Positions 11,392 to 20,429 of a stretch of DNA of 64,000 nucleotides are shown here, piece by piece. Within the stretch, counting starts at the first letter, position 1, and each line of letters starts with the position of its first letter. The stretch covers positions 9,519 through 73,518 of the forward strand of contig JASFHH010000002.1 of assembly GCA_050123335.1 (NCBI GenBank). The letters are read 5' to 3'. The notes under the pieces are model-generated. The model worked only from the letters and a program-made list of their open reading frames with translations, made no database searches and had not been told where the DNA came from. The translations under genes were made by a program, and so were the position numbers. The stretch comes from Gammaproteobacteria bacterium (GTDB lineage Bacteria > Pseudomonadota > Gammaproteobacteria > UBA12402).

Positions 11392-11844
11392 ATGACCGAG
11401 CAAGAAGTTCGTAATGTTGCAATAAAATTATTGGCGCAACGTGAACATTCACGTTATGAATTACAAAGTAAATTATTAATTCGTAAATATGATCGCGCAG
11501 TCATTGAAAAAGTATTGGACGAATTAAGTCAGACAAATTTACAAAGTGATATTCGCTTTGCGCAAAGTTATACGCGGATGAAAATGGCGCGAGGTTTTGG
11601 TCCAATACGTATTCGCCAAGAACTGCACGATCGTGGGATTGCTGATGATTTAATTGAAGAATGTTTGGCGATAAGTTTAGATGCATGGATGCAGGAAATA
11701 ATTAAAGTGCGGAGTAAAAAGTTTGGCTCTGACGTACCGCACGATTATGAGGAGCGTGCTAAACAAATGCGTTTTTTGCAATATCGAGGTTTTACTACTG
11801 AACAAATAAAACGAGGAATGAGATCGATCGATGAAAACAGCTAA
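11392..11844 (+). CDS. recX: RecA regulator RecX
   Basis: Lies immediately downstream of recA. It is a 150-aa helical protein with the conserved RecX pattern (...LLAQREHSRYELQSKL...). The recA-recX-alaS synteny supports the call. Confidence 0.85.
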   Translation: MTEQEVRNVAIKLLAQREHSRYELQSKLLIRKYDRAVIEKVLDELSQTNLQSDIRFAQSYTRMKMARGFGPIRIRQELHDRGIADDLIEECLAISLDAWMQEIIKVRSKKFGSDVPHDYEERAKQMRFLQYRGFTTEQIKRGMRSIDENS

Positions 11845-14383
11845 ATTACGAAAAGTTTTTTTAGATTATTTTCAAAAAAAACAACATGAAATAGTTGCTA
11901 GCAGTTCTTTAGTGCCAGAAGATGATCCAAGTTTGTTTTTTGTTAATGCGGGCATGGTGCCATTTAAAAATGTATTTTTAGGTAGAGAAAAAAGACCTTA
12001 TGTTCGTGCGACTTCAGTGCAAAAATGTATGCGGGTTAGCGGAAAGCATAATGATTTAGAACAGGTTGGTTTTACTGCACGCCATCATACTTTCTTTGAA
12101 ATGCTAGGCAATTTTAGTTTTGGTGATTATTTTAAGCGTGAAGCGATTCAGTATGCGTGGGAATTTTTGACTGATGTTTTAAAAATTCCTGCAGAAAAAT
12201 TATGGATAACAGTTTATAAAGATGATCAGGAAGCTGCTGATATTTGGCTAAAAGAAATAAAAATTGATCCAAAACAATTTTCTAGATGTGGAGAAAAAGA
12301 TAATTTTTGGGCGATGGGTGATATTGGTCCTTGTGGCCCTTGCTCAGAAATTTTTTATGATCATGGTGATAAATTTTCTGGTGGTCCTCCGGGTTCTCCA
12401 GATGAAGATGGTGATCGGTATGTAGAAATTTGGAATTTAGTGTTCATGCAGTATAACCGCGATCATAATGGTAATTTAACTCCATTACCAAAACCATCAA
12501 TAGATACTGGTATGGGTTTGGAACGAGTTGCGGCGGTAATGCAAGGAGTGCATAGTAATTACGATATTGATTTATTTCAAGATTTACTTAAAGCTGTTGC
12601 TGATGTTGTTGGTGCAAAAGATTTTGATGATCCTGGATTAAAAGTCATTGCTGACCACATTCGTGCAAGTGTATTTTTAATTGCAGATGATGTGTTACCA
12701 TCCAATGAAGGCAGGGGTTATGTGTTGCGCCGTATTATTCGGCGTGCAATTAGGTATGGAAATAAATTAGGAATGAGTAGGCCATTTTTTTATAAATTGG
12801 TTGCACCATTGGTTAAAATCATGGGTGATGCTTACCCAGAAATTTCCACAGCACAGCATTTTATTGAAAAAACCATATTGCATGAAGAAGAACAATTTGC
12901 CAAAACTTTACATCTTGGTTTAAAGATTTTAGAAGAAGACATTGCACATTTAAAAACAAAAGTTATTCCGGGTGGGATAGTGTTTAAATTATATGATACT
13001 TATGGCTTTCCGGAAGATTTAACTGCAATTATTGCGCGTGAGCGTGGTTTAGAAATTGATATAAAAGGTTTTGAAAAAGAAATGCAACAACAGCGTAATC
13101 GTTCAAAAGCTTCCAGTCAGTTTAAAACTGATTATAATCTTGAATTGCCCGAGATGTCAGCTACTAAATTTATTGGTTATGATAATTTAACTTGCGATGG
13201 TAAAGTTTTAGCTTTGCTGCAAAATAATAAGTTGGTAGATGAATTAAATAATGGTGAGGGTGCAATTGTTTTAGACTGTACCCCGTTTTTTGCTGAAGCT
13301 GGTGGACAAATTGCCGATACAGGTGAAATTAAATTGGCTTCCGGCATTTTTGCGGTACATGATACGCAAAAAATCGGTAATGTGATTGTGCACTTTGGGA
13401 AAATGCAGCAAGGGAAATTACATACTGATGATAAAGTTACTGCTTGCGTTTCTCCTGATAATCGCCGCGCAGTTGCATTGAATCACACAGCAACACATTT
13501 GTTACATGCAGCGTTGCGTAAAGTTTTAGGTAAACATGTAAAACAAAAAGGTTCTTTGGTTGCAGCTGATCGGTTGCGTTTTGATTTTTCTCATCCTAAT
13601 CCGGTTACACCAAAAGAATTATATCAAGTTGAAGAATTGGTTTATGCACAAATTTTATCGAATTGTCCGGTAGAAACTAATATTATGGCACCGAATGATG
13701 CAATGAAAATGGGTGCTATGGCATTATTTGGTGAGAAATATGGTGAAAAAGTTCGTGTGTTAAGTATTGGCGATTTTTCATTAGAGCTTTGTGGTGGCAC
13801 ACATGTGCAACGCACTGGCGATTTAGGTTATTTTCGTATCATTAGCGAAACAGGTGTGGCTGCAGGAGTGCGTCGAATTGAAGCAGTAACAGGTTGGGGT
13901 GCTTCACAATTTGTTTTACAACAAGCAGAGCATAATCATGCAGAGCTTGCGCAATTACAATTACAAAAACGCGAATTGCAAAAGAGCATTGAACAACTTA
14001 AAAATAAATTGGCTGGAAGTTTTGTAAATGATTTAGCGAATGCCGCAAAAAAAATTAACGATATAAATGTTTTAACCGCAATAGTTTCTGATGTTGATGT
14101 AAAAGGTTTGCGCACATTATTAGATCAATTAAAAAATAAATTTGATGAAGCAGTGATTGTGTTAGCAACAACTAAAAATAATGTGGTTAATTTAGTTGCA
14201 GGTGTAACAAAAAGTTGCACAAATCGTTTTCATGCTGGTGAAATAGTAAACATTGTTGCTAAAAAAATAGGCGGAAAAGGTGGTGGTAGAAAAGATTTAG
14301 CACAAGGTGGTGGCAATAATTTAAACGAATTAAATAATGCATTAATTCTTGTTGAAAAGTATGTTAAAGAAGGTATAAAATAA
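11831..14383 (+). CDS. alaS: alanine--tRNA ligase
   Basis: Class II aaRS motifs of AlaS (FTARHHTFFEMLGNFSFGDY; editing domain HTATHLLH...CGGTH). The 5' end overlaps the recX 3' end by 14 nt. Confidence 0.95.
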   Translation: MKTAKLRKVFLDYFQKKQHEIVASSSLVPEDDPSLFFVNAGMVPFKNVFLGREKRPYVRATSVQKCMRVSGKHNDLEQVGFTARHHTFFEMLGNFSFGDYFKREAIQYAWEFLTDVLKIPAEKLWITVYKDDQEAADIWLKEIKIDPKQFSRCGEKDNFWAMGDIGPCGPCSEIFYDHGDKFSGGPPGSPDEDGDRYVEIWNLVFMQYNRDHNGNLTPLPKPSIDTGMGLERVAAVMQGVHSNYDIDLFQDLLKAVADVVGAKDFDDPGLKVIADHIRASVFLIADDVLPSNEGRGYVLRRIIRRAIRYGNKLGMSRPFFYKLVAPLVKIMGDAYPEISTAQHFIEKTILHEEEQFAKTLHLGLKILEEDIAHLKTKVIPGGIVFKLYDTYGFPEDLTAIIARERGLEIDIKGFEKEMQQQRNRSKASSQFKTDYNLELPEMSATKFIGYDNLTCDGKVLALLQNNKLVDELNNGEGAIVLDCTPFFAEAGGQIADTGEIKLASGIFAVHDTQKIGNVIVHFGKMQQGKLHTDDKVTACVSPDNRRAVALNHTATHLLHAALRKVLGKHVKQKGSLVAADRLRFDFSHPNPVTPKELYQVEELVYAQILSNCPVETNIMAPNDAMKMGAMALFGEKYGEKVRVLSIGDFSLELCGGTHVQRTGDLGYFRIISETGVAAGVRRIEAVTGWGASQFVLQQAEHNHAELAQLQLQKRELQKSIEQLKNKLAGSFVNDLANAAKKINDINVLTAIVSDVDVKGLRTLLDQLKNKFDEAVIVLATTKNNVVNLVAGVTKSCTNRFHAGEIVNIVAKKIGGKGGGRKDLAQGGGNNLNELNNALILVEKYVKEGIK

Positions 14384-14459: not shown

Positions 14460-14700
14460 ATGGCAGGAGTGATTGCAAATTAATTGTAATAACTTCTGAA
14501 ATAAATCAAGTAAACTTGGCCCTGATTAGGGAGGAAAGAAGGGGGAGTTTAATCTTACGTATTAAACGCTCTTTTAATGTGCAAGTAGGTTAATGCAAAT
14601 TATTTTGCTTGCTGGGAGCATTAAGAATTGAGGAAAAGTGAGGGAATGTCGGCCAAGGATGGCTAGGCCTCTTTTAGTTACTTAGCTATAAGAAGGCTAT
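14460..14700 (+). ncRNA. candidate CsrA-titrating small RNA (RsmY/RsmZ/CsrB-like), GGA-motif rich
   Basis: About 8 GGA motifs fall within ~200 nt, including AAGGAUGG presented in the loop of a GGCC...GGCC hairpin (14651-14670). The region sits immediately upstream of csrA and is followed by hairpins with U-rich tails. No ORF is present. Confidence 0.25.
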
Positions 14701-14787
14701 ATGCCAATCCTACCTCAAGATGCGATTTTTGGTTTTCGCTTTTGCATTGTTCGCCAAAATTTCGCATCTTGAGGTAGGATTGGCATA
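14701..14787. repeat. 87-nt near-perfect inverted repeat (about 25-bp perfect stem) with U-rich 3' tail
   Basis: ATGCCAATCCTACCTCAAGATGCGA ... TCGCATCTTGAGGTAGGATTGGCAT was read directly from the sequence. It is followed by AGCTCTTTTCTTT. Confidence 0.6.
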
Positions 14788-15072
14788 GCTCTTTTCTTTA
14801 ATTACCGGATGATTTGTTCAAAAAATGAACAAAAGTGGTTGTTTTGGGGTATTTTTGTGATTTTTTCGCAAAAAAAAACCAAAAAATTTGAATCCTTAAG
14901 GTTTTTTTAAGGTTTATCTACTACAATAAGATCATCCTAGGTGTTTAATGTCTTCCGTTAAAGCTTGGGGAGTGGGTTTTGTTCAAAGTGTATATGTTGA
15001 GCAAAGATAAGTTGATACAAAGTATTAAATAGGGAATAAGTACTATAGTTACTATAAGGATATAAGGAGTTC

Positions 15073-15276
15073 GTGATGCTGATTTTAACAAGACGTACAG
15101 GAGAAAGTTTGATTATAGGGGATGATGTTACAGTAACTGTGCTTGGTATTAAAGGTAACCAAGTACGTATTGGAGTAAACGCTCCAAAGGAAGTTTCTGT
15201 TCATCGCGAAGAAATATATCAGCGTATTCAGGATGAGAAACAAGGAAAGGGAAGTAGCGACAGCGATAAGGAATAA
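15073..15276 (+). CDS. csrA: carbon storage regulator CsrA (RsmA)
   Basis: [48 protein letters not shown] is the canonical CsrA sequence. The leader has two GGA motifs, one of them in the SD. Confidence 0.95.
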
Positions 15277-15552
15277 TGTTTCTGACGACTGTTAGAAATA
15301 TCTTGATAAAGGAATGTTTGGTTCTTGTTTATGTAGTTGCGTGTAATCTGCGCGTATTTATATACCCATCACGATCGAATTTTTTCTAAACCAAAACATC
15401 TAATTCTAAACGCAATTCGGCGCATTACAAAACGGAAAGCCTGATCATAATAGGTATCGTATGTCATTTATTTTTACTGTAAAATCTGTGTAATTTTCTC
15501 AGCTTGCAACGGTCTAATTCTCAAGTTATACTCAGCCGTTTTAGAATACTTT

Positions 15553-15647
<95 letters not shown>

Positions 15648-15739
15648 TAATATGTAGATTTAGTATTAAGATAGAAAGAAGATTTAAAAAATTAGTTATA
15701 GCGGGGATGAGAACCCTCGCAATCGCAAAGCGATTGGAA

Positions 15740-15851
15740 GAGGGTTCGACAAAATCGGCAGGATAGCCGATTTTGAACGTCGAAGCGAAGCTTCGACGGC
15801 CCGAAGGGCGAGGACACAGGATGTGTCCGAGTAATCCCTCTCTCTCCGCCA
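15740..15851 (+). pseudogene. tRNA-Ser-like 3' fragment (T-arm + acceptor 3' strand + CCA) split in the T-loop by an ~85-nt structured insert
   Basis: GAGGGTTCGA | insert | ATCCCTC TCTCTCC G CCA. The insert contains the hairpins AATCGGCAGGATAGCCGATT and GAGGACACAGGATGTGTCCGAG. Confidence 0.5.
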
Positions 15852-15879
15852 TTTATATTACAGAGTAACATAAGCTTTT

Positions 15880-15953
15880 GCGCCCGTAGCTCAGCTGGAT
15901 AGAGTACCTGGCTACGAACCAGGCGGTCGGGAGTTCGAATCTCTCCGGGCGCG
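15880..15953 (+). tRNA. tRNA-Arg (anticodon ACG)
   Basis: 74-nt cloverleaf: acceptor GCGCCCG/CGGGCGC, anticodon loop CUACGAA, T-loop GGGAGTTCGAATCTCTC, discriminator G; CCA is not encoded. Confidence 0.9.
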
Positions 15954-15990
15954 CTTAGATTCAAAAAAAATCCACTTATAAGTGGTTTCG

Positions 15991-16845
15991 TTAGTTGCTT
16001 TTTTGTTGTTCTTCCTGTTGCTCGATTTGATTCAAATAATTTTTCTGTGATATGACTTGCTTCCCAGTTTCTTTTTCTAATTCCACGCGAGCATTGCCAG
16101 CAATTTTACCGCCTTTTTGCGCTGCATCTTTATTTGCATTAAAACCTTGTGCATTTTTGCTGCGAGTTATTTCTGTGGTTGATGCTTCACCAAGCATTGA
16201 AAAAATTAACTCTAGATCAGTCATGTGATCGCGCAAATTTTCTCGCTTGAGCTTTTTATGTTTTTTATATTCATTTGGTGTCATGCCAAAGGCAGCTTTG
16301 GAAATTTCTGCAGTTAAAATTGCGTATTCGCGTTGTTCTTTGACATCACGTTTTTTCCATTCCTCAGTTAATTCATCACGAATTGCAATACTGCGCATTC
16401 GTTTTTCAATCCAATCATCTGAGTAACCTTTGGCTTTGTAAATAGCGCGAGTACGTTTTGAGGCAAGCTCCGGATCCTCGATTTCCTGAATTCTCTCATA
16501 CCCAACTTTGGCTAACCATCTTTTGAACGGCTCAGCCTTGGGTGAGGGGATAGATTGAATTATGCGGAAAATTCCTTCGGTGTTGGCGGCGTTTAGCTTT
16601 TGTTTACCACCAGAAGTTTCAAAATAAAGGGGGGTGACAATTTGTCCCCACCCTTTGGTTAACTCGTTGTCTCTTATACGCATTTTTTTAATATAGTCAC
16701 TTGCATTAACTGAATCGGTTAATGCTTGTACAACATCGGCAATTACAAACCACCATTCCCCATTATGCATGGTTTTGCGTATATTTTTGCCTTTAAAGAC
16801 AGCAATTTTGGTTGATGACTCAATAGTTGTATTATTCTTGTTCAT
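15991..16845 (-). CDS. Bro-N domain (phage antirepressor-like) protein
   Basis: The N-terminus (...AVFKGKNIRKTMHNGEWWFVIADVVQALTDSVNASDYIKKM...) matches the Bro-N/KilA-N-type DNA-binding fold that is frequent on mobile elements. Immediately adjacent to tRNA-Arg. Confidence 0.6.
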   Translation of the reverse strand: MNKNNTTIESSTKIAVFKGKNIRKTMHNGEWWFVIADVVQALTDSVNASDYIKKMRIRDNELTKGWGQIVTPLYFETSGGKQKLNAANTEGIFRIIQSIPSPKAEPFKRWLAKVGYERIQEIEDPELASKRTRAIYKAKGYSDDWIEKRMRSIAIRDELTEEWKKRDVKEQREYAILTAEISKAAFGMTPNEYKKHKKLKRENLRDHMTDLELIFSMLGEASTTEITRSKNAQGFNANKDAAQKGGKIAGNARVELEKETGKQVISQKNYLNQIEQQEEQQKSN

Positions 16846-17080
16846 GATTGTACCTCCTTTTTGATTTTTTTATTTTGCATCTAAAAACCTCTATTTCATC
16901 CGTGAAATCTTGAATTGCCCAAATCATTTGATAAATTGTATCACGATCAAGTTCTAGCTCCCCTTCCTGAGTAGCTAGCAGACCACTTATGATCGCTTGT
17001 ATTTTGATGAATCTTTCATCTATTGCATCTTGCAAATCTAGTTCTGAAAGTGAAGGATTAAGCAGAAAAATATTATCCAT
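16832..17080 (-). CDS. small hypothetical protein (82 aa)
   Basis: ORF overlapping the start of the Bro-N gene by 14 nt (operon-like). No motif. Confidence 0.3.
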   Translation of the reverse strand: MDNIFLLNPSLSELDLQDAIDERFIKIQAIISGLLATQEGELELDRDTIYQMIWAIQDFTDEIEVFRCKIKKSKRRYNHEQE

Positions 17081-17395
17081 AAATCACCCGTTTTTATTTT
17101 GAATTAAATATGCATCAACAAAATTTATATTGATGTCCGGGATTTTACAGGTTAGCCTTCCTGCCGTGTGAGTGTTTCGAGCACCATTGTTACGATAAAT
17201 TTAATATGGGTGTTTGTCAATGATAAAAAACTTAAAAAAAGTTTTTTAATATAGTCAAATGTTTATTGGAAACAGAAAATTGCTTAAACTTTATTTAGAT
17301 TATAGGCTAAAATAAGCTGGATTGTAGCTGAAATAGCTATGTGTGAAAGATAAAGCAATGTAAATTGCAGCTATGTAACTGTAGGAGATGTAGCG

Positions 17396-18643
17396 ATGAA
17401 AATAGCTTTTTTGATAGAAGGGTATAAGTTAGATTATAAATGCCGAAGCATCCAATGGGCAATTAATTTAGCAAAAAAAAATTCTGCTTTAATATTTGAT
17501 ATTATTGAATCATGTTCGCCTATACATTTGAGCGAGGCACTTCGCTTGTTTCCTAAAAAAGAATGGGCTTTTTGCGTACTGGGATGGATTACTACTTTAG
17601 AAAATCATGGAAGAGATTTGAAAAACATTATAACTTTAATTAAGTGGTGTTTTGAAAATCTTATCAAAGAAGGTCATATAAAAAAAATACCAACTTACCT
17701 AGAAAACTTATATGATCAAAGCAAAAAATCAAAATTAAATTTTGAGAAAGCAAAGGTTATGTTAGATAAACACATTCCAAAAGAATATACATCATCAGAT
17801 AAAATTGAAAAATTCTCTCAAAAATTAAATAAAATAATGAATGAAACCAGTAATAAGTTGTCTAGAATAAATTTTCTAAAATGGCTAGAAAAAAACAAGG
17901 AAGTCCGGGAAATTTTTGTTTATGTTGGGGAGAATCATATTGATTTTTGTGATTCCATAGAAAAAGTAAAGATAATTAAAAAAAGTAATGATATGCGAAG
18001 ATTATGTGTAAATATATTTGGTAAAAATGTTTATATTAATATATTTAGAGTAACACATAGAGATGTCAAGTATTATGAGTCTGATGTCAAGCATTATGAG
18101 TCTATGGAGCAATTTGCAAAAGGGCGTGGTCTTATAATTCCAAAAAATACCTCACAAATAATTCAAGATACCTCACAAATAATTCAAGATACCTCACAAA
18201 TAATTCAAGAAGACCTCTTGCAGACAAATCGTGGTCTTGTGAATGATTTATTGCTTGCTTGGAGTTATGCTAATGATGCACTTAAAAAATTAATTGAACG
18301 TGGTGAAAAAAAACCAGTATTTTCCAGCAAGTTTCCAAAAAAACAGTTTTCAGAAAAAAAGTTTCCAAAAAAAGTCAAGTTTGATTTGCATAAATGCGTT
18401 CAAAAATTTGATTTTTGGATGAAGTATTATAATCATTTTAATACAACAGATACACAAGAGCTGTATGCTTGGTTACATGCAGATAGAGGTAGTAGGTTAG
18501 TGTCTGAATATAGTGATTTTTGTAAATTGGCTGAAGCTTTAAAGAAAAAGAAATATAATATTATATTCCCTCTTTCAGAATTTAAGTTTAAAGAGAATAT
18601 GAAGATAGCGCATTCTCGCGAAAAAGAATACTCTATGATTTAA
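17396..18643 (+). CDS. hypothetical protein with in-frame tandem repeats
   Basis: 415-aa Lys-rich ORF. It contains 3x TSQIIQD (21-nt units), 2x DVK[YH]YES and KFPKK repeats. Confidence 0.4.
   Translation: MKIAFLIEGYKLDYKCRSIQWAINLAKKNSALIFDIIESCSPIHLSEALRLFPKKEWAFCVLGWITTLENHGRDLKNIITLIKWCFENLIKEGHIKKIPTYLENLYDQSKKSKLNFEKAKVMLDKHIPKEYTSSDKIEKFSQKLNKIMNETSNKLSRINFLKWLEKNKEVREIFVYVGENHIDFCDSIEKVKIIKKSNDMRRLCVNIFGKNVYINIFRVTHRDVKYYESDVKHYESMEQFAKGRGLIIPKNTSQIIQDTSQIIQDTSQIIQEDLLQTNRGLVNDLLLAWSYANDALKKLIERGEKKPVFSSKFPKKQFSEKKFPKKVKFDLHKCVQKFDFWMKYYNHFNTTDTQELYAWLHADRGSRLVSEYSDFCKLAEALKKKKYNIIFPLSEFKFKENMKIAHSREKEYSMI
18149..18211 (+). repeat. 3 tandem copies of a 21-nt unit (ACCTCACAAATAATTCAAGAT) inside the CDS
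   Basis: Read directly from the sequence. The copies are in frame and encode TSQIIQD x3. Confidence 0.85.
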
Positions 18644-18652
18644 TTTTTTTAA

Positions 18653-18680
18653 CTGCGAACCAGGCGGTCGGAAGTTCGAA
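18653..18680 (+). repeat. partial tRNA-Arg 3'-half copy (CTGCGAACCAGGCGGTCGGAAGTTCGAA) followed by an AAAAAATTGCAGG motif
   Basis: Near-identical to the anticodon-stem-to-T-loop segment of the tRNA-Arg at 15880-15953. It is truncated within the T-loop. Confidence 0.55.
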
Positions 18681-18786
18681 AAAATTGCAGGGGCAGATTA
18701 TTTTTGATTTAGAACTAATTGAATAAGTCGAAATTAAAATAGTTTTTGCATCAAGTTACTATTGATGTAATAGCTTAGACTGTTTG

Positions 18787-19953
18787 CTAATGGTTTTGCA
18801 GTAATTTAATTAAGTCTTCAATATTGATAAAAGTAACCACAATGTCATCATATTGTTTTTGATAGCTTTCGTTGACGTCAAAGCCTACAACAAAATTTTC
18901 TCCTTTAGGGTAATGCTTGCGAAAAATATGTAAACTTTTGGAGTTAAATGTGTCGGCGCTCCATTTGCATTCAATAGCAATAGGTTCTTTTCGATTACGT
19001 TTTTTGAGATAAATAAAGTCTATTTCATGACGTCTTTTGTCTCTCCAATAGTAAATATTTCTGGTTTGCAAATTACCGTGTAATTCGTTTAATACACAAT
19101 GCTCCCACAACAAACCCATATCATCCGTTCTTAATTTGTGCCAACTTTTAGCATAACAAATCATTCCTGTATCAAAACCATAAACTTTAGGTGCAGAGAT
19201 AATTTCGGAAGGCAGGTGGGAATTAAAAGGTCTAACAATGTGTGCAACAAATGTCGCTTCTAAAACTGAAAGATAATTTGATATTGTTGTTCTGCTAACT
19301 TCACAAGGAGAAGTAAATCTAGTTGCTTCAAAAATATTGCCGCTTTGAGTAAATAATAATTCAACAAATTTTTGAAAAGAATGACGTCGTTCTAATCTAA
19401 ATAATTCTTGAATATCTTTAGCCCAATAGGAATCTATCCATTCGAGAAATTCTTTTTCAGGAAATTCTTTTGACATAAAAAATGGGGGTAAGCCACCATG
19501 CAATAATCGATGTTCAATTTTTTTATTTCCAAAGATTTTAGACTCAGATAATAACATTGGTGTTAACCACAGTTCTGTTTTGCGTCCTGTTAATGTGTCG
19601 CCAAATTTACTGGATGCGCCAAGTGTGGATGAGCCTGTTGCAATGATTTTAATATCCGAAAAATGATCTGCTGCGATTTTTAATAGTTCAGATGGATTGG
19701 TTAATCTATGAATTTCATCCAGTACCAGACGCCCGCCGTTTTTGCTTGTCAAAAATAATTCTGCGTTTTCCATTTGTTTGCGCACGCTAGGAAGCTCACA
19801 ATCGTAGTAATCGACATTATCCAAGCTTCTGCAGAGGCAAGTTTTGCCTACGCGCCTAACGCCAGATAGCCAGAGGATAGATTTTCTTTCCCAGGCTTGT
19901 TCAATTTTATTTTTCCAAAAAATACGTTCTTTCATGGTTTGCTCCAAATGCAA
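18787..19953 (-). CDS. AAA+ ATPase, DUF4143-type
   Basis: Walker A GVRRVGKT; architecture and length (388 aa) are typical of the ATPase/DUF4143 family common in islands. Confidence 0.7.
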   Translation of the reverse strand: MHLEQTMKERIFWKNKIEQAWERKSILWLSGVRRVGKTCLCRSLDNVDYYDCELPSVRKQMENAELFLTSKNGGRLVLDEIHRLTNPSELLKIAADHFSDIKIIATGSSTLGASSKFGDTLTGRKTELWLTPMLLSESKIFGNKKIEHRLLHGGLPPFFMSKEFPEKEFLEWIDSYWAKDIQELFRLERRHSFQKFVELLFTQSGNIFEATRFTSPCEVSRTTISNYLSVLEATFVAHIVRPFNSHLPSEIISAPKVYGFDTGMICYAKSWHKLRTDDMGLLWEHCVLNELHGNLQTRNIYYWRDKRRHEIDFIYLKKRNRKEPIAIECKWSADTFNSKSLHIFRKHYPKGENFVVGFDVNESYQKQYDDIVVTFINIEDLIKLLQNH

Positions 19954-20138
19954 CTATGATTGCATATAGTTTAACTATATGCAACTATAAATGCAAATAG
20001 TTTATCCACTTTTGTCTTAATCAATAACCTCGCGTGTGAGATTCGCGTGATTGGGTTCTCATAAGTTGGCATTTGTACGTGTTTGCAATGGGCATCCGCA
20101 TTTAAAAAATTATTAAAAATCAAAGTATTACGTTTAAA

Positions 20139-20360
20139 TGCGCGTGCTACGAACCAGGCGGTCGGGAGTTTGACAAATCGGCAGGATAGCCGATTTGCAC
20201 AACTTTGCATAGCAAAGTTGCCCGAAGGGCGAGGCACAAGGAAGTGCCGAGTGAAAAAATTGCAGGATTGCAATTTTCGACGTTTTATGCAGCAAAACGC
20301 CTGCAGGGTGATGCGCCATGGAAGGCGCATCATTAATCTCTCCGGGCGCGCTTAGATTCA
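20139..20360 (+). pseudogene. tRNA-Arg-derived pseudo-copy: 5' piece GCGCGTGCTACGAACCAGGCGGTCGGGAGTT + ~170-nt insert + 3' piece TCTCTCCGGGCGCGCTTAGATTCA
   Basis: Both pieces match tRNA-Arg(ACG) plus its immediate 3' flank. The insert shares the AATCGGCAGGATAGCCGATT and GCCCGAAGGGCGAGG-ACA-GGA-GTG-CCGAGT hairpins with the insert at 15750-15833. It also carries AAAAAATTGCAGGATTGCAATTTT. Confidence 0.55.
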
Positions 20361-20429
20361 GCAGATAAATCAAGCGGTTATAACGTTAGTCCTCAGCCGC
20401 TTTTTTTGTTTCCATGCAACAGGTGTTAA

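Follow-up and report, generated by a model that had tools for sequence, protein, structure and literature searches.

What kind of element interrupts the copies of two different tRNA genes at one and the same point? The question is raised by a 64,000-nt stretch of contig JASFHH010000002.1 from a gammaproteobacterium (assembly GCA_050123335.1), hereafter the window, to whose full length all coordinates refer. Two sequences on its forward strand, copy A at 15697-15851 and copy B at 20140-20360, duplicate in part the neighbouring genes for tRNA-Ser(GCU) and tRNA-Arg(ACG), respectively, and each is split by a common structured insert that follows the TTCGA or TTTGA of the T-loop (Table 1). The motifs AATCGGCAGGATAGCCGATT and GCCCGAAGGGCGAGG are exact in both copies and each occurs twice in the window, as compared with 0.00 and 0.02 times in shuffled sequence. 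A preliminary description of this DNA had noticed the two tRNA remnants and their common insert, which are real, and the identical T-loop position, which is general in the tRNA-linked copies of other genomes. It had recognized no described repeat family, and on this point it has to be corrected: an Rfam alignment of copy A, the 3' ends of both copies, the hairpins of Escherichia coli rrnB and a covariance model identify copies A and B as tRNA-linked repeats (TLRs), the family of RtT RNA and of RrA, RrB and RrF.

Copies A and B as tRNA-linked repeats

In E. coli K-12, TLRs are present in 22 copies at ten loci and are defined by their last 18-19 bp, which repeat exactly the 3' end of the upstream tRNA or 5S rRNA, while a function is known only for the three 5S-linked members, RrA, RrB and RrF (PMC8144298). 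Copy A has such an end in 18 of 19 nt over AATCCCTCTCTCTCCGCCA and copy B in 16 of 16 nt up to the end of the tRNA, with the identity running on into the trailer. As both repeat the 3' trailer, they are copies of the gene and not of the mature tRNA. The location of copy A is also that of a TLR, as it starts some 50 nt past tRNA-Ser and leaves 28 nt to tRNA-Arg, shares their strand and is separated from neither by a terminator; copy B lies on the strand of tRNA-Arg, 4.2 kb downstream of it, with an acquired segment between the two.

The inserted unit is a module of about 75-85 nt made up of four hairpins, namely H1 with an AGGAUA loop, H2, H3 (GCCCGAAGGGC) and H4 with a CA(N)GGA loop, and its consensus start, (N)GAC, overlaps the GA of the T-loop TTCGA. 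All four hairpins are seen in the minimum-energy fold of copy A, in which GCGGGGA of the 5' arm is also paired with UCUCCGC of the 3' tail and GAACCCUC with GAGGGUUC; compared with shuffled sequence, folding reaches z = -8.1 for copy A and z = -4.8 for copy B. In copy B, positions 20146-20173 are identical to tRNA-Arg from the anticodon loop to the T-loop in 27 of 28 nt. The preceding GCGCGTG resembles the acceptor 5' strand, is able to pair with the 3' strand at six of seven positions and pairs with the 3' tail in the fold, and the right piece comprises the 3' strands of T-stem and acceptor, with 10 nt of the tRNA-Arg trailer. The D arm is missing from both copies, together with the 5' strand of the anticodon stem in copy B and the whole anticodon arm in copy A.

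The insert of copy B consists of two tandem modules, which explains its larger size. The first has the same H1 as copy A (loop AGGATA), an H2 that differs in sequence yet folds as a hairpin (AACTTTGC-ATA-GCAAAGTT), the same H3 (GCCCGAAGGGC) and an H4 (GGCAC-AAGGAAG-TGCC) whose base changes relative to copy A preserve the pairs. The second comprises an H1 with the sequence AAAATTGC-AGGA-TTGCAATTTT, of which a near-identical version occurs at locus L113 of the comparisons reported below, an H2-like hairpin, an H3-like CCTGCAGGG and an H4 with the sequence GATGCGCC-ATGGAA-GGCGCATC; this last hairpin gave weak Rfam matches to TwoAYGGAY (16.7 bits) and sX7. The preliminary description had put the inserts at about 85 and about 170 nt, measured here as 83 and 161 nt, and had placed that of copy B correctly in the T-loop, taking it for a single unit.

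TLRs, including the RtT RNA of the tyrT operon, have reportedly been known in E. coli since 1978, from work said to be that of Egan and Landy in 1978 and of Rudd in 1999. The link to RtT is seen in an end-to-end alignment of copy A to the Rfam family RF00391 (27 bits, E 0.0017 in a local search; gathering score 45), in which the two share the blocks GGAUGAGAA, GGUUCGA, AACGUCG..CGACG, GCCCGAAGGGCGAGG and CGAGUAAUCC..CCA. In particular, the 5' arm of copy A aligns with the 5' part of RtT, GGAUGAGAA included, and its motif recurs as (G/A)TGAGAACC or ATTCGAACC at the same place in copies of other genomes. A second family, RF02902 (AaHKsRNA22), matches copy A over H1-H4 with the whole of its 101-position model (30.2 bits, E 0.00039; gathering threshold 39.8). 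The Rfam scan gave no RtT match in copy B, and neither copy reaches the curated threshold of a family. The low score of copy A is the one to be expected of a TLR that is not linked to tRNA-Tyr, since RF00391 was built around the Tyr units, which score 133-138 bits in E. coli, and the repeats between argV, argY, argZ and argQ of the same species are equally low (31, 29.2 and 22.8 bits). AaHKsRNA22, reportedly a small RNA of Aggregatibacter detected by RNA sequencing, is by its sequence evidently the same module in Pasteurellaceae.

Outside tRNA remnants, the module is seen in the T1-T2 spacer of E. coli rrnB, GGACAAATCCGCCGGGAGCGGATTTGAACGTTGCGAAGCAACGGCCCGGAGGGTGGCGGGCAGGACGCCCGCC, which has the same four hairpins in the same order as copy A. 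The spacer reads GGAC-AAATCCGC-CGGGA-GCGGATTT-GAACG-TTGC-GAA-GCAA-CG-GCCC-GGA-GGGT-G-GCGGGC-AGGA-CGCCCGC-CATAA, followed by the last bases of 5S rRNA, and copy A reads CGAC-AAAATCGGC-AGGATA-GCCGATTTT-GAACG-TCGAAGC-GAA-GCTTCGA-CG-GCCC-GAA-GGGC-GA-GGACA-CAGGATG-TGTCC-GAGTA, followed by the last bases of tRNA-Ser; H1-H4, the linkers and the order all match. The window copies also share with RrB the exposure of GGA in the hairpin loops of the module, which in RrB are those of H1 and H4 (CCGGGAG and CAGGACG), ahead of the 3' end of the upstream stable RNA. RrA, RrB and RrF, found between T1 and T2 of rrnA, rrnB and rrnD, have the four-hairpin module in common with the window copies, but they are joined to 5S rRNA instead of tRNA, lie between two terminators and are expressed by read-through. 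Their conservation has been reported only within Enterobacterales (PMC8144298). A separate observation concerns the part of rrnB that lies upstream of the RrB module (locus L243, 270-363), where CTCCTGAGTAGGAC resembles GCGAGAGTAGGGAAC of 5S rRNA; by this resemblance the 5S-linked repeats, too, look like a split copy of the 5S rRNA 3' end, beyond the 18-nt tail.

The family assignment holds in both directions. The covariance model R1, made from an alignment (A1) of 35 modules of diverse sources with RrB in the seed (50.3 bits), matches the Tyr RtT units (21.7-27.2 bits) and the Arg TLRs (18.9-29.6 bits) of E. coli with E values of 7e-7 to 5e-4, and none of these is in its seed. Run over the window, R1 finds module 1 of copy B, copy A and module 2 of copy B, the rest being at noise level. 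When all complete E. coli genomes were searched with copy A by blastn, nothing was matched, because the shared segments are too short and interrupted, and the homology is seen by covariance models only.

The window copies are like the E. coli TLRs and RtT in being placed in or after a tRNA operon, in taking their last 18-19 nt from the 3' end of the upstream tRNA, in the succession of a 5' motif (GGATGAGAA), a half T-arm (GGTTCGA), a core of H2, GCCCGAAGGGC, GA(G/A)G and H4, and GAGTAATCC, and in tandem multiplication. They differ in their host, which is an unclassified, AT-rich gammaproteobacterial metagenome-assembled genome (MAG) and not a member of Enterobacterales, and in the GGA of their H1 and H4 loops, which is absent from the tRNA-linked copies of E. 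coli. Copy B differs further in retaining far more of the tRNA, in holding two modules in one T-loop and in its distance of 4.2 kb from its tRNA. A place among the Legionellales, to which the preliminary description had pointed, is not supported: the RecA encoded in the window is 100% identical to that of an unclassified gammaproteobacterial MAG, and the nearest named relatives, at 83-85%, are Thioalkalispiraceae and Ca. (Candidatus) Tenderia.

Table 1. Features of copies A and B and of their surroundings (coordinates of the whole 64,000-nt window).
Feature	Position	Strand	Evidence or remark
Copy A, 5' arm: GCGGGGA, ATGAGAACC motif, CCCTC, small hairpin GCAATCGC-AAA-GCGATTG	15697..15739	+	
Copy A, left tRNA piece GAGGGTTCGA: T-stem 5' strand of tRNA-Ser and TTCGA	15740..15749	+	10/10 identity
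Copy A, module	15747..15833	+	model R1, 63.9 bits, E 7.9e-15
Copy A, insert	15750-15832	+	83 nt
Copy A, H1, loop AGGATA	15750-15775	+	read from sequence
Copy A, H2	15780-15796	+	read from sequence
Copy A, H3, GCCCGAAGGGC	15799-15809	+	read from sequence
Copy A, H4, loop CAGGATG	15812-15828	+	read from sequence; followed by GAGT, 15829-15832
Copy A, right tRNA piece AATCCCTCTCTCTCCGCCA: 3'-terminal 19 nt of tRNA-Ser with a single C>T, and 7 nt of trailer	15833..15858	+	26/27 identity
Copy B, left tRNA piece: GCGCGTG joined straight to tRNA-Arg from anticodon loop to TTTGA	20140..20173	+	
Copy B, insert	20174-20334	+	161 nt
Copy B, module 1	20171..20253	+	model R1, 81.9 bits, E 1.4e-19
Copy B, module 2, diverged, in tandem	20255..20334	+	model R1, 26.9 bits, E 4.8e-5 over 20255-20328
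Copy B, right tRNA piece AATCTCTCCGGGCGCG and trailer CTTAGATTCA	20335..20360	+	26/26 identity
tRNA-Ser(GCU), intact; donor of the tRNA parts of copy A	15553..15645	+	ARAGORN; Rfam tRNA, 59.2 bits
tRNA-Arg(ACG), intact; donor of the tRNA parts of copy B	15880-15954	+	ARAGORN; Rfam tRNA, 64.3 bits
tRNA-Arg with trailer TTAGATTCA	15880..15963	+	alignment
Two overlapping sigma-70-like promoter matches upstream of tRNA-Ser	15504..15547	+	TTGCAA-17-TATACT and TTCTCA-18-TAGAAT; consensus matches only
Possible weak terminator after copy B: AAGCGG, 19-nt loop, CCGCTT, TTTTTT	20372..20407	+	putative; read from sequence
csrA, immediately preceding the tRNA operon; outside the repeat	15073..15276	+	translation; Pfam CsrA
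Low-GC segment of 4.2 kb separating tRNA-Arg from its repeat	15991..20138	.	open reading frames, Pfam, GC
Possible inverted remnant of a repeat 5' arm: ATGAGAACCC, hairpin, AGGTTAT	20020..20075	-	putative

Conservation of the module and its GGA loops

The secondary structure of the module is conserved and covarying. RNAalifold on alignment A1 recovered H1, H3 and H4, with compensatory changes in 10 of 16 pairs. Over 137 independent R1 matches from the metagenome loci listed, standard pairs filled 96.1% of the cells (81.2% in shuffles) and 255 cells were changed on both sides (64 in shuffles, no more than 57 in slid controls), counts that lean somewhat towards the model because the alignment was fitted to R1.

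The distribution of the module was followed in two scans. The genome scan, with one genome per species and the pattern GCCCGAAGGGCGAGG-N(5-20)-CCGAGT, gave at least 120 loci, and the metagenome scan, with the 20-nt H1 sequence as query, gave at least 120 contigs; loci from these comparisons carry L numbers, and the figures on them hold among the matches listed. The taxa of the genome scan include Enterobacterales, Xanthomonadales, Alteromonadales, Ectothiorhodospiraceae and Thiohalobacterales, and further Desulfovibrio, Desulfobacterales, Holophagaceae/Geothrix, Verrucomicrobia and others. Among the loci listed, 46 non-redundant copies are tRNA-linked and follow tRNA-Ser, Arg, Lys, Gln or Pro, with tRNA-Thr coming from the metagenome loci. 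Their layout is tRNA, often a terminator hairpin, 5' arm, NNGGTTCGA, module, then (N)AATCC and the tRNA 3' end. The 12-nt tail differs from the upstream tRNA by at most two mismatches in 39 of the 46 copies, and the 10-nt left piece (T-stem 5' strand and TTCGA) does so in 28, whereas the best left-piece match in shuffled sequence has a mean of 3.65 mismatches. The 3' tail is thus much better conserved than the 5' parts, which suggests selection or continuing gene conversion at that end. At L134, L227 and several other tRNA-linked loci, the terminator hairpin that follows the tRNA recurs after the repeat, which makes the duplicated unit a tRNA 3' end plus terminator, much like T1, RrB and T2 in rrnB.

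Some copies preserve much of the tRNA. Near-complete pseudo-tRNAs split exactly after TTCGA are found in tandem units of tRNA-Lys in Photorhabdus, at L231 (tRNA-Arg) and at L154 (tRNA-Ser), and at L112 three modules occupy one T-loop. At L014 and L027, both from Photorhabdus, ARAGORN reports a 'tRNA-Lys' whose T-arm is built from the start of the module; interrupted pseudo-tRNAs of the TLR family can therefore be misannotated as tRNA genes. A second position is used in pseudo-copies of tRNA-Ser(UGA/CGA), where the module lies in the anticodon loop as ..GGTCTCGA/module/AAAACCG.. or ..GTCTTG(A)/module/AAACTGCC.. (slashes mark the junctions). These copies (L015, L029, L072 and L092, all from Xanthomonadales, and L234) have the module directly after the anticodon, often in tandem, and stand beside an intact gene for the same tRNA. 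As the CTYGA/AAAC of this anticodon loop mimics the TTCGA/AATCC of the T-loop, some sequence-directed placement of the module is plausible.

Two further contexts were met. A GGA-less module is the internal cargo of a dispersed element of about 220 nt that resembles a miniature inverted-repeat transposable element (MITE), with terminal inverted repeats (TIRs) of about 17-25 bp (GGAACCTCTGATTAATT...AATTAATCAGAGGTTCC); it is present on at least 10 contigs of one Thiohalobacterales MAG (JTS-AC272; L036, L040, L042, L071, L073, L076, L091, L099 and L116) and also in MAG OS_PC_MetaG.mb.114 (L004, L018, L045 and L096), often at contig ends. In the metagenomes, a tRNA lies within 250 nt of the module at 11 of 116 loci, and most matches are one unit of a longer run of GGA-loop hairpins, with up to 5 R1 matches per locus (L131, L165, L199, L204, L205, L125, L129, L151 and many other metagenome loci, and also L056 and L113). 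A scan of 20 such multi-GGA metagenome loci at the Rfam gathering thresholds returned one tRNA and nothing else, and by their sequence these runs may be unannotated sponge RNAs of the Csr/Rsm type.

The canonical CsrA site is a GGA in a hairpin loop. Copy A has two such loops about 55 nt apart, AGGAUA and CAGGAUG, and copy B has four, AGGAUA, AAGGAAG, AGGA and AUGGAA. The search of the metagenomes fixed H1 only and that of the genomes left the H4 loop free. In the metagenome set, GGA is found in the H4 loop of 127 of 137 matches, mostly as CA(N)GGAUG. Among distinct cores of the genome set, it is found in H4 of 58 of 105 non-enteric and 0 of 22 enteric ones, and counting all non-enteric matches listed it is present in 63 of 110, where shuffles gave 31.6 on average and 44 at most. 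The module therefore exists in a GGA-carrying and a GGA-less type, and the window copies belong with E. coli RrB to the former.

Such loops recall CsrB, CsrC, RsmY and RsmZ, which likewise have hairpins with GGA in the loop and to which the arrays of many GGA hairpins on metagenome contigs add a further likeness; CAGGAUG, the H4 loop of copy A, is reportedly the repeat motif of CsrB, as Liu and colleagues are said to have described in 1997. Unlike these RNAs, the module brings 2-4 sites per RNA, sits inside tRNA remnants and has no dedicated promoter under the control of GacA, BarA or LetA. Apart from the weak TwoAYGGAY match on one hairpin, no Csr/Rsm family of Rfam was matched. For RrB, binding has been measured: it co-purifies with CsrA and binds it in vitro with a dissociation constant of about 100 nM, a change of three GGA to UUU abolishes the binding, RrB is displaced from CsrA by CsrB, and RrB also binds Hfq (PMC8144298). 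By analogy, the RNA of the window module probably binds CsrA, a proposal that follows from the homology to RrB and from the GGA loop motif.

Proposed expression and rival explanations

The promoter-like sites upstream of tRNA-Ser, together with a scan that found no terminator between tRNA-Ser, copy A and tRNA-Arg, imply that copy A should be part of the tRNA precursor. Both copies would be decayed partial duplicates of a tRNA gene with its trailer, in which the T-loop after A58 holds one module (copy A) or two (copy B). Short-homology recombination or template switching at GGTTCGA/AATCC, a near-universal sequence, would have brought the module into different tRNA genes, and tandem duplication and decay of the 5' tRNA part would have followed. 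Copy A would be transcribed from the tRNA-Ser promoter in a precursor of tRNA-Ser, repeat and tRNA-Arg and excised by tRNA-processing enzymes, as its exact tRNA 3' end, trailer and acceptor-like closing stem suggest, and its tRNA-like ends would make it a natural 'tRNA scaffold'. In the engineered RNAs of that name, attributed to Ponchon and Dardel in 2007, an RNA is reportedly embedded in a tRNA for processing and protection in the cell. The likeness lies in a structured RNA enclosed by acceptor and T-arm parts with tRNA-like ends; it is an analogy of principle only, as in nature the T-loop or, in tRNA-Ser, the anticodon loop holds the insert and the tRNA body is mostly decayed.

Once released, the copy A RNA would show two GGA loops (H1 AGGAUA and H4 CAGGAUG) able to bind a CsrA dimer, and it would act as a small, minor CsrA decoy whose level tracks the transcription of the tRNA operon, as proposed for E. 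coli RrB. Copy B, formerly the tRNA-Arg equivalent with four GGA loops, would have been cut from its promoter by the 4.2 kb segment and may be silent. The possible weak terminator that follows it was not reported by the terminator scan, as its loop exceeds the 8 nt allowed there. Taken as a whole, this account of the two copies as TLRs, with copy A as a cotranscribed, tRNA-processed CsrA decoy, appears likely, judging from what can be read in the DNA.

Several points weigh against it. The scan detected no promoter for copy B, and entry into T-loops by recombination is something that we infer only. A 12-bp minihelix formed by the 5' arm and the 3' tail stem had been considered as the closing structure of every tRNA-linked copy; it was significant in only 6 of the 46 listed, so that the minihelix model of processing is not general. 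In E. coli, the phenotypes of RrA, RrB and RrF are modest and ambiguous (PMC8144298). GGA is absent from H4 in all 22 enterobacterial copies listed and also at L047, L085, L104 and L122, where csrA lies upstream of the tRNA-Ser(GCU) repeat as it does in the window, and CsrA binding cannot therefore be the function of the whole family. The csrA gene next to the window operon had suggested a functional meaning, which was dropped because H4 is GGA-less in these four other csrA-adjacent lineages. The gene order in the window is recA, recX, alaS (11831-14383), csrA, tRNA-Ser and tRNA-Arg; the same succession of csrA, tRNA-Ser(GCU) and tRNA-Arg(ACG) is present in E. coli (csrA, serV, argV) and in several other Gammaproteobacteria, and the adjacency is probably just conserved gene order.

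The precise, sequence-dependent junctions fit short-homology recombination or template switching and an enzyme specific for TYGA/A alike. The module could be, or have been, (the cargo of) a small non-autonomous mobile element that an enzyme inserts after TYGA in 7-nt hairpin loops, with the tRNA pieces as its disrupted target. This would account for the same junction in tRNA-Ser, Arg, Lys, Gln, Pro and Thr, for near-complete tRNAs split exactly after TTCGA, for anticodon-loop cases that occur, among the matches listed, in tRNA-Ser(UGA/CGA) only, where CTYGA/AA mimics TTCGA/AA, for the MITE-like carrier in the Thiohalobacterales MAG and for the very wide spread of the module. The overlap of its (N)GAC start with the GA of TTCGA fits microhomology recombination equally well, however, and neither the window copies nor the listed tRNA-linked ones have a target-site duplication or TIRs at the insert ends, or a transposase or recombinase. 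Distant Gammaproteobacteria have the tRNA-Ser(GCU) repeat at one and the same locus, a sign of old copies passed on vertically, no pair of empty and filled sites was found, and the strand always follows that of the tRNA, as a role at the RNA level would have it. A connection with elements of the IS200/IS605 type, omega-RNA or bridge-RNA was considered and rejected, with no transposase-like open reading frame (ORF) beside the copies and only about 220 nt between the TIRs of the Thiohalobacterales repeat. Of the small element with T-loop specificity suggested in the preliminary description, the T-loop position is retained and sequence-directed placement is plausible, whereas TIRs, target duplication and enzyme were not seen; as an explanation of the window copies, a mobile element is unlikely.

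The same description had offered conserved arm sites of integrative elements, in which case the copies would be tRNA halves of the attR type (att denoting attachment sites) and the shared insert would be integrase arm sequence. Copy B invites this reading, as a low-GC segment with phage-like genes begins just after tRNA-Arg and has copy B at its far end, and the identity of copy B to tRNA-Arg from the anticodon loop past the 3' end has the form that, by general knowledge, an attR left by crossover in the anticodon loop would take; T-loop and anticodon loop are involved in tRNA-gene att sites as well. The segment has no integrase or excisionase, however, and copy A lies between two intact tRNA genes with no island. 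Moreover, direct repeats exist for copy B only and the module splits that repeat instead of adjoining it, its hairpins covary as RNA structure, and the identical module is present in the E. coli rrnB spacer, in the tRNA operons of many genomes without an island and, more broadly, in hundreds of contexts that lack one. The most that can be granted is a second use of the tRNA-Arg half of copy B as an att repeat; the module is not arm DNA, and the explanation as a whole is very improbable. Still less credence can be given to a removable, intron-like sequence in functional tRNA copies. Some copies elsewhere do keep an almost full-length tRNA around the insert, and insertion after A58 would, from what is known of tRNA structure, leave the five-nucleotide T-loop motif intact; a GAUGAG-like motif and the position in the loop had also suggested a ribozyme or intron. 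With E values up to 10 allowed, Rfam gave no match to group I, group II or ribozyme families. The D arm is absent from both window copies and the anticodon arm also from copy A, and an intact gene for the same tRNA stands beside both copies and beside each pseudo-copy with a recovered flanking tRNA. To our knowledge, no bacterial mechanism splices in the T-loop.

The acquired segment and the meaning of the repeats

The 4.2 kb segment between tRNA-Arg and copy B has a GC content of 28-35%, against about 35-41% in the flanks, and its ORFs encode a Bro-N protein (284 aa), two proteins of 82 and 415 aa without a family and an AAA_14/DUF4143 ATPase; ORFs and Pfam gave no integrase in 15991-20138. 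That the segment landed between tRNA-Arg and an older Arg repeat is the favoured order of events, since in relatives (L134) the tRNA and its terminator have the Arg(ACG) repeat right behind them; the tRNA-Arg half may instead have been an attR repeat first and have gained its modules later. The 9-mer ATGAGAACC occurs only twice in the window, in copy A and at 20054-20062 on the minus strand, and the stretch around the latter, about 65 nt to the left of copy B, resembles the 5' arm of copy A and may be an inverted fragment that marks where the right edge of the segment was rearranged.

Two palindromic structures were observed besides. At 19960-19984, directly upstream of the divergent AAA_14/DUF4143 gene (start at 19953, minus strand), there is a perfect 25-nt palindrome, TTGCATATAGTTTAACTATATGCAA, surrounded by related TGCAACTATRA repeats; it gave weak matches to Rfam microRNA families on both strands and looks like an operator. 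Between alaS and csrA, at 14699-14788, a near-perfect hairpin of about 90 nt gave spurious matches to MIR9408 and mir-5470 on both strands and may serve in regulation or termination, or else be a small palindromic repeat.

Copies A and B are neither a new kind of element nor integrase arm DNA. The window instance alone is an ordinary member of an old repeat family in an uncultured gammaproteobacterium, and more interest attaches to the wider pattern of a cross-phylum module, two tRNA loops, GGA and GGA-less types, a MITE-like carrier and multi-GGA arrays, for which novelty is not claimed. The comparison shows that the core of TLRs is one conserved, covarying RNA module, which extends beyond the enterobacteria and is the same as that of the CsrA-binding RrB, and it gives precise junctions, TTCGA/module/AATCC or, in tRNA-Ser, CTYGA/module/AAAC. 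The nature and origin of TLRs thereby become testable through CsrA binding of the GGA type, processing of the tRNA type and filled and empty sites. A broader proposal, which we put forward as rather doubtful, is that the module is an ancient, multi-phylum unit that binds CsrA/RsmA or another protein, that it enters the TYGA/A loops of spare tRNA copies (T-loops and tRNA-Ser(NGA) anticodon loops) in a sequence-directed manner with the tRNA as processing scaffold, and that it has also been built into multi-GGA sponges and MITEs. If this were true, the enterobacterial TLRs, unexplained since 1978, would be the decayed, GGA-less relics of that system.

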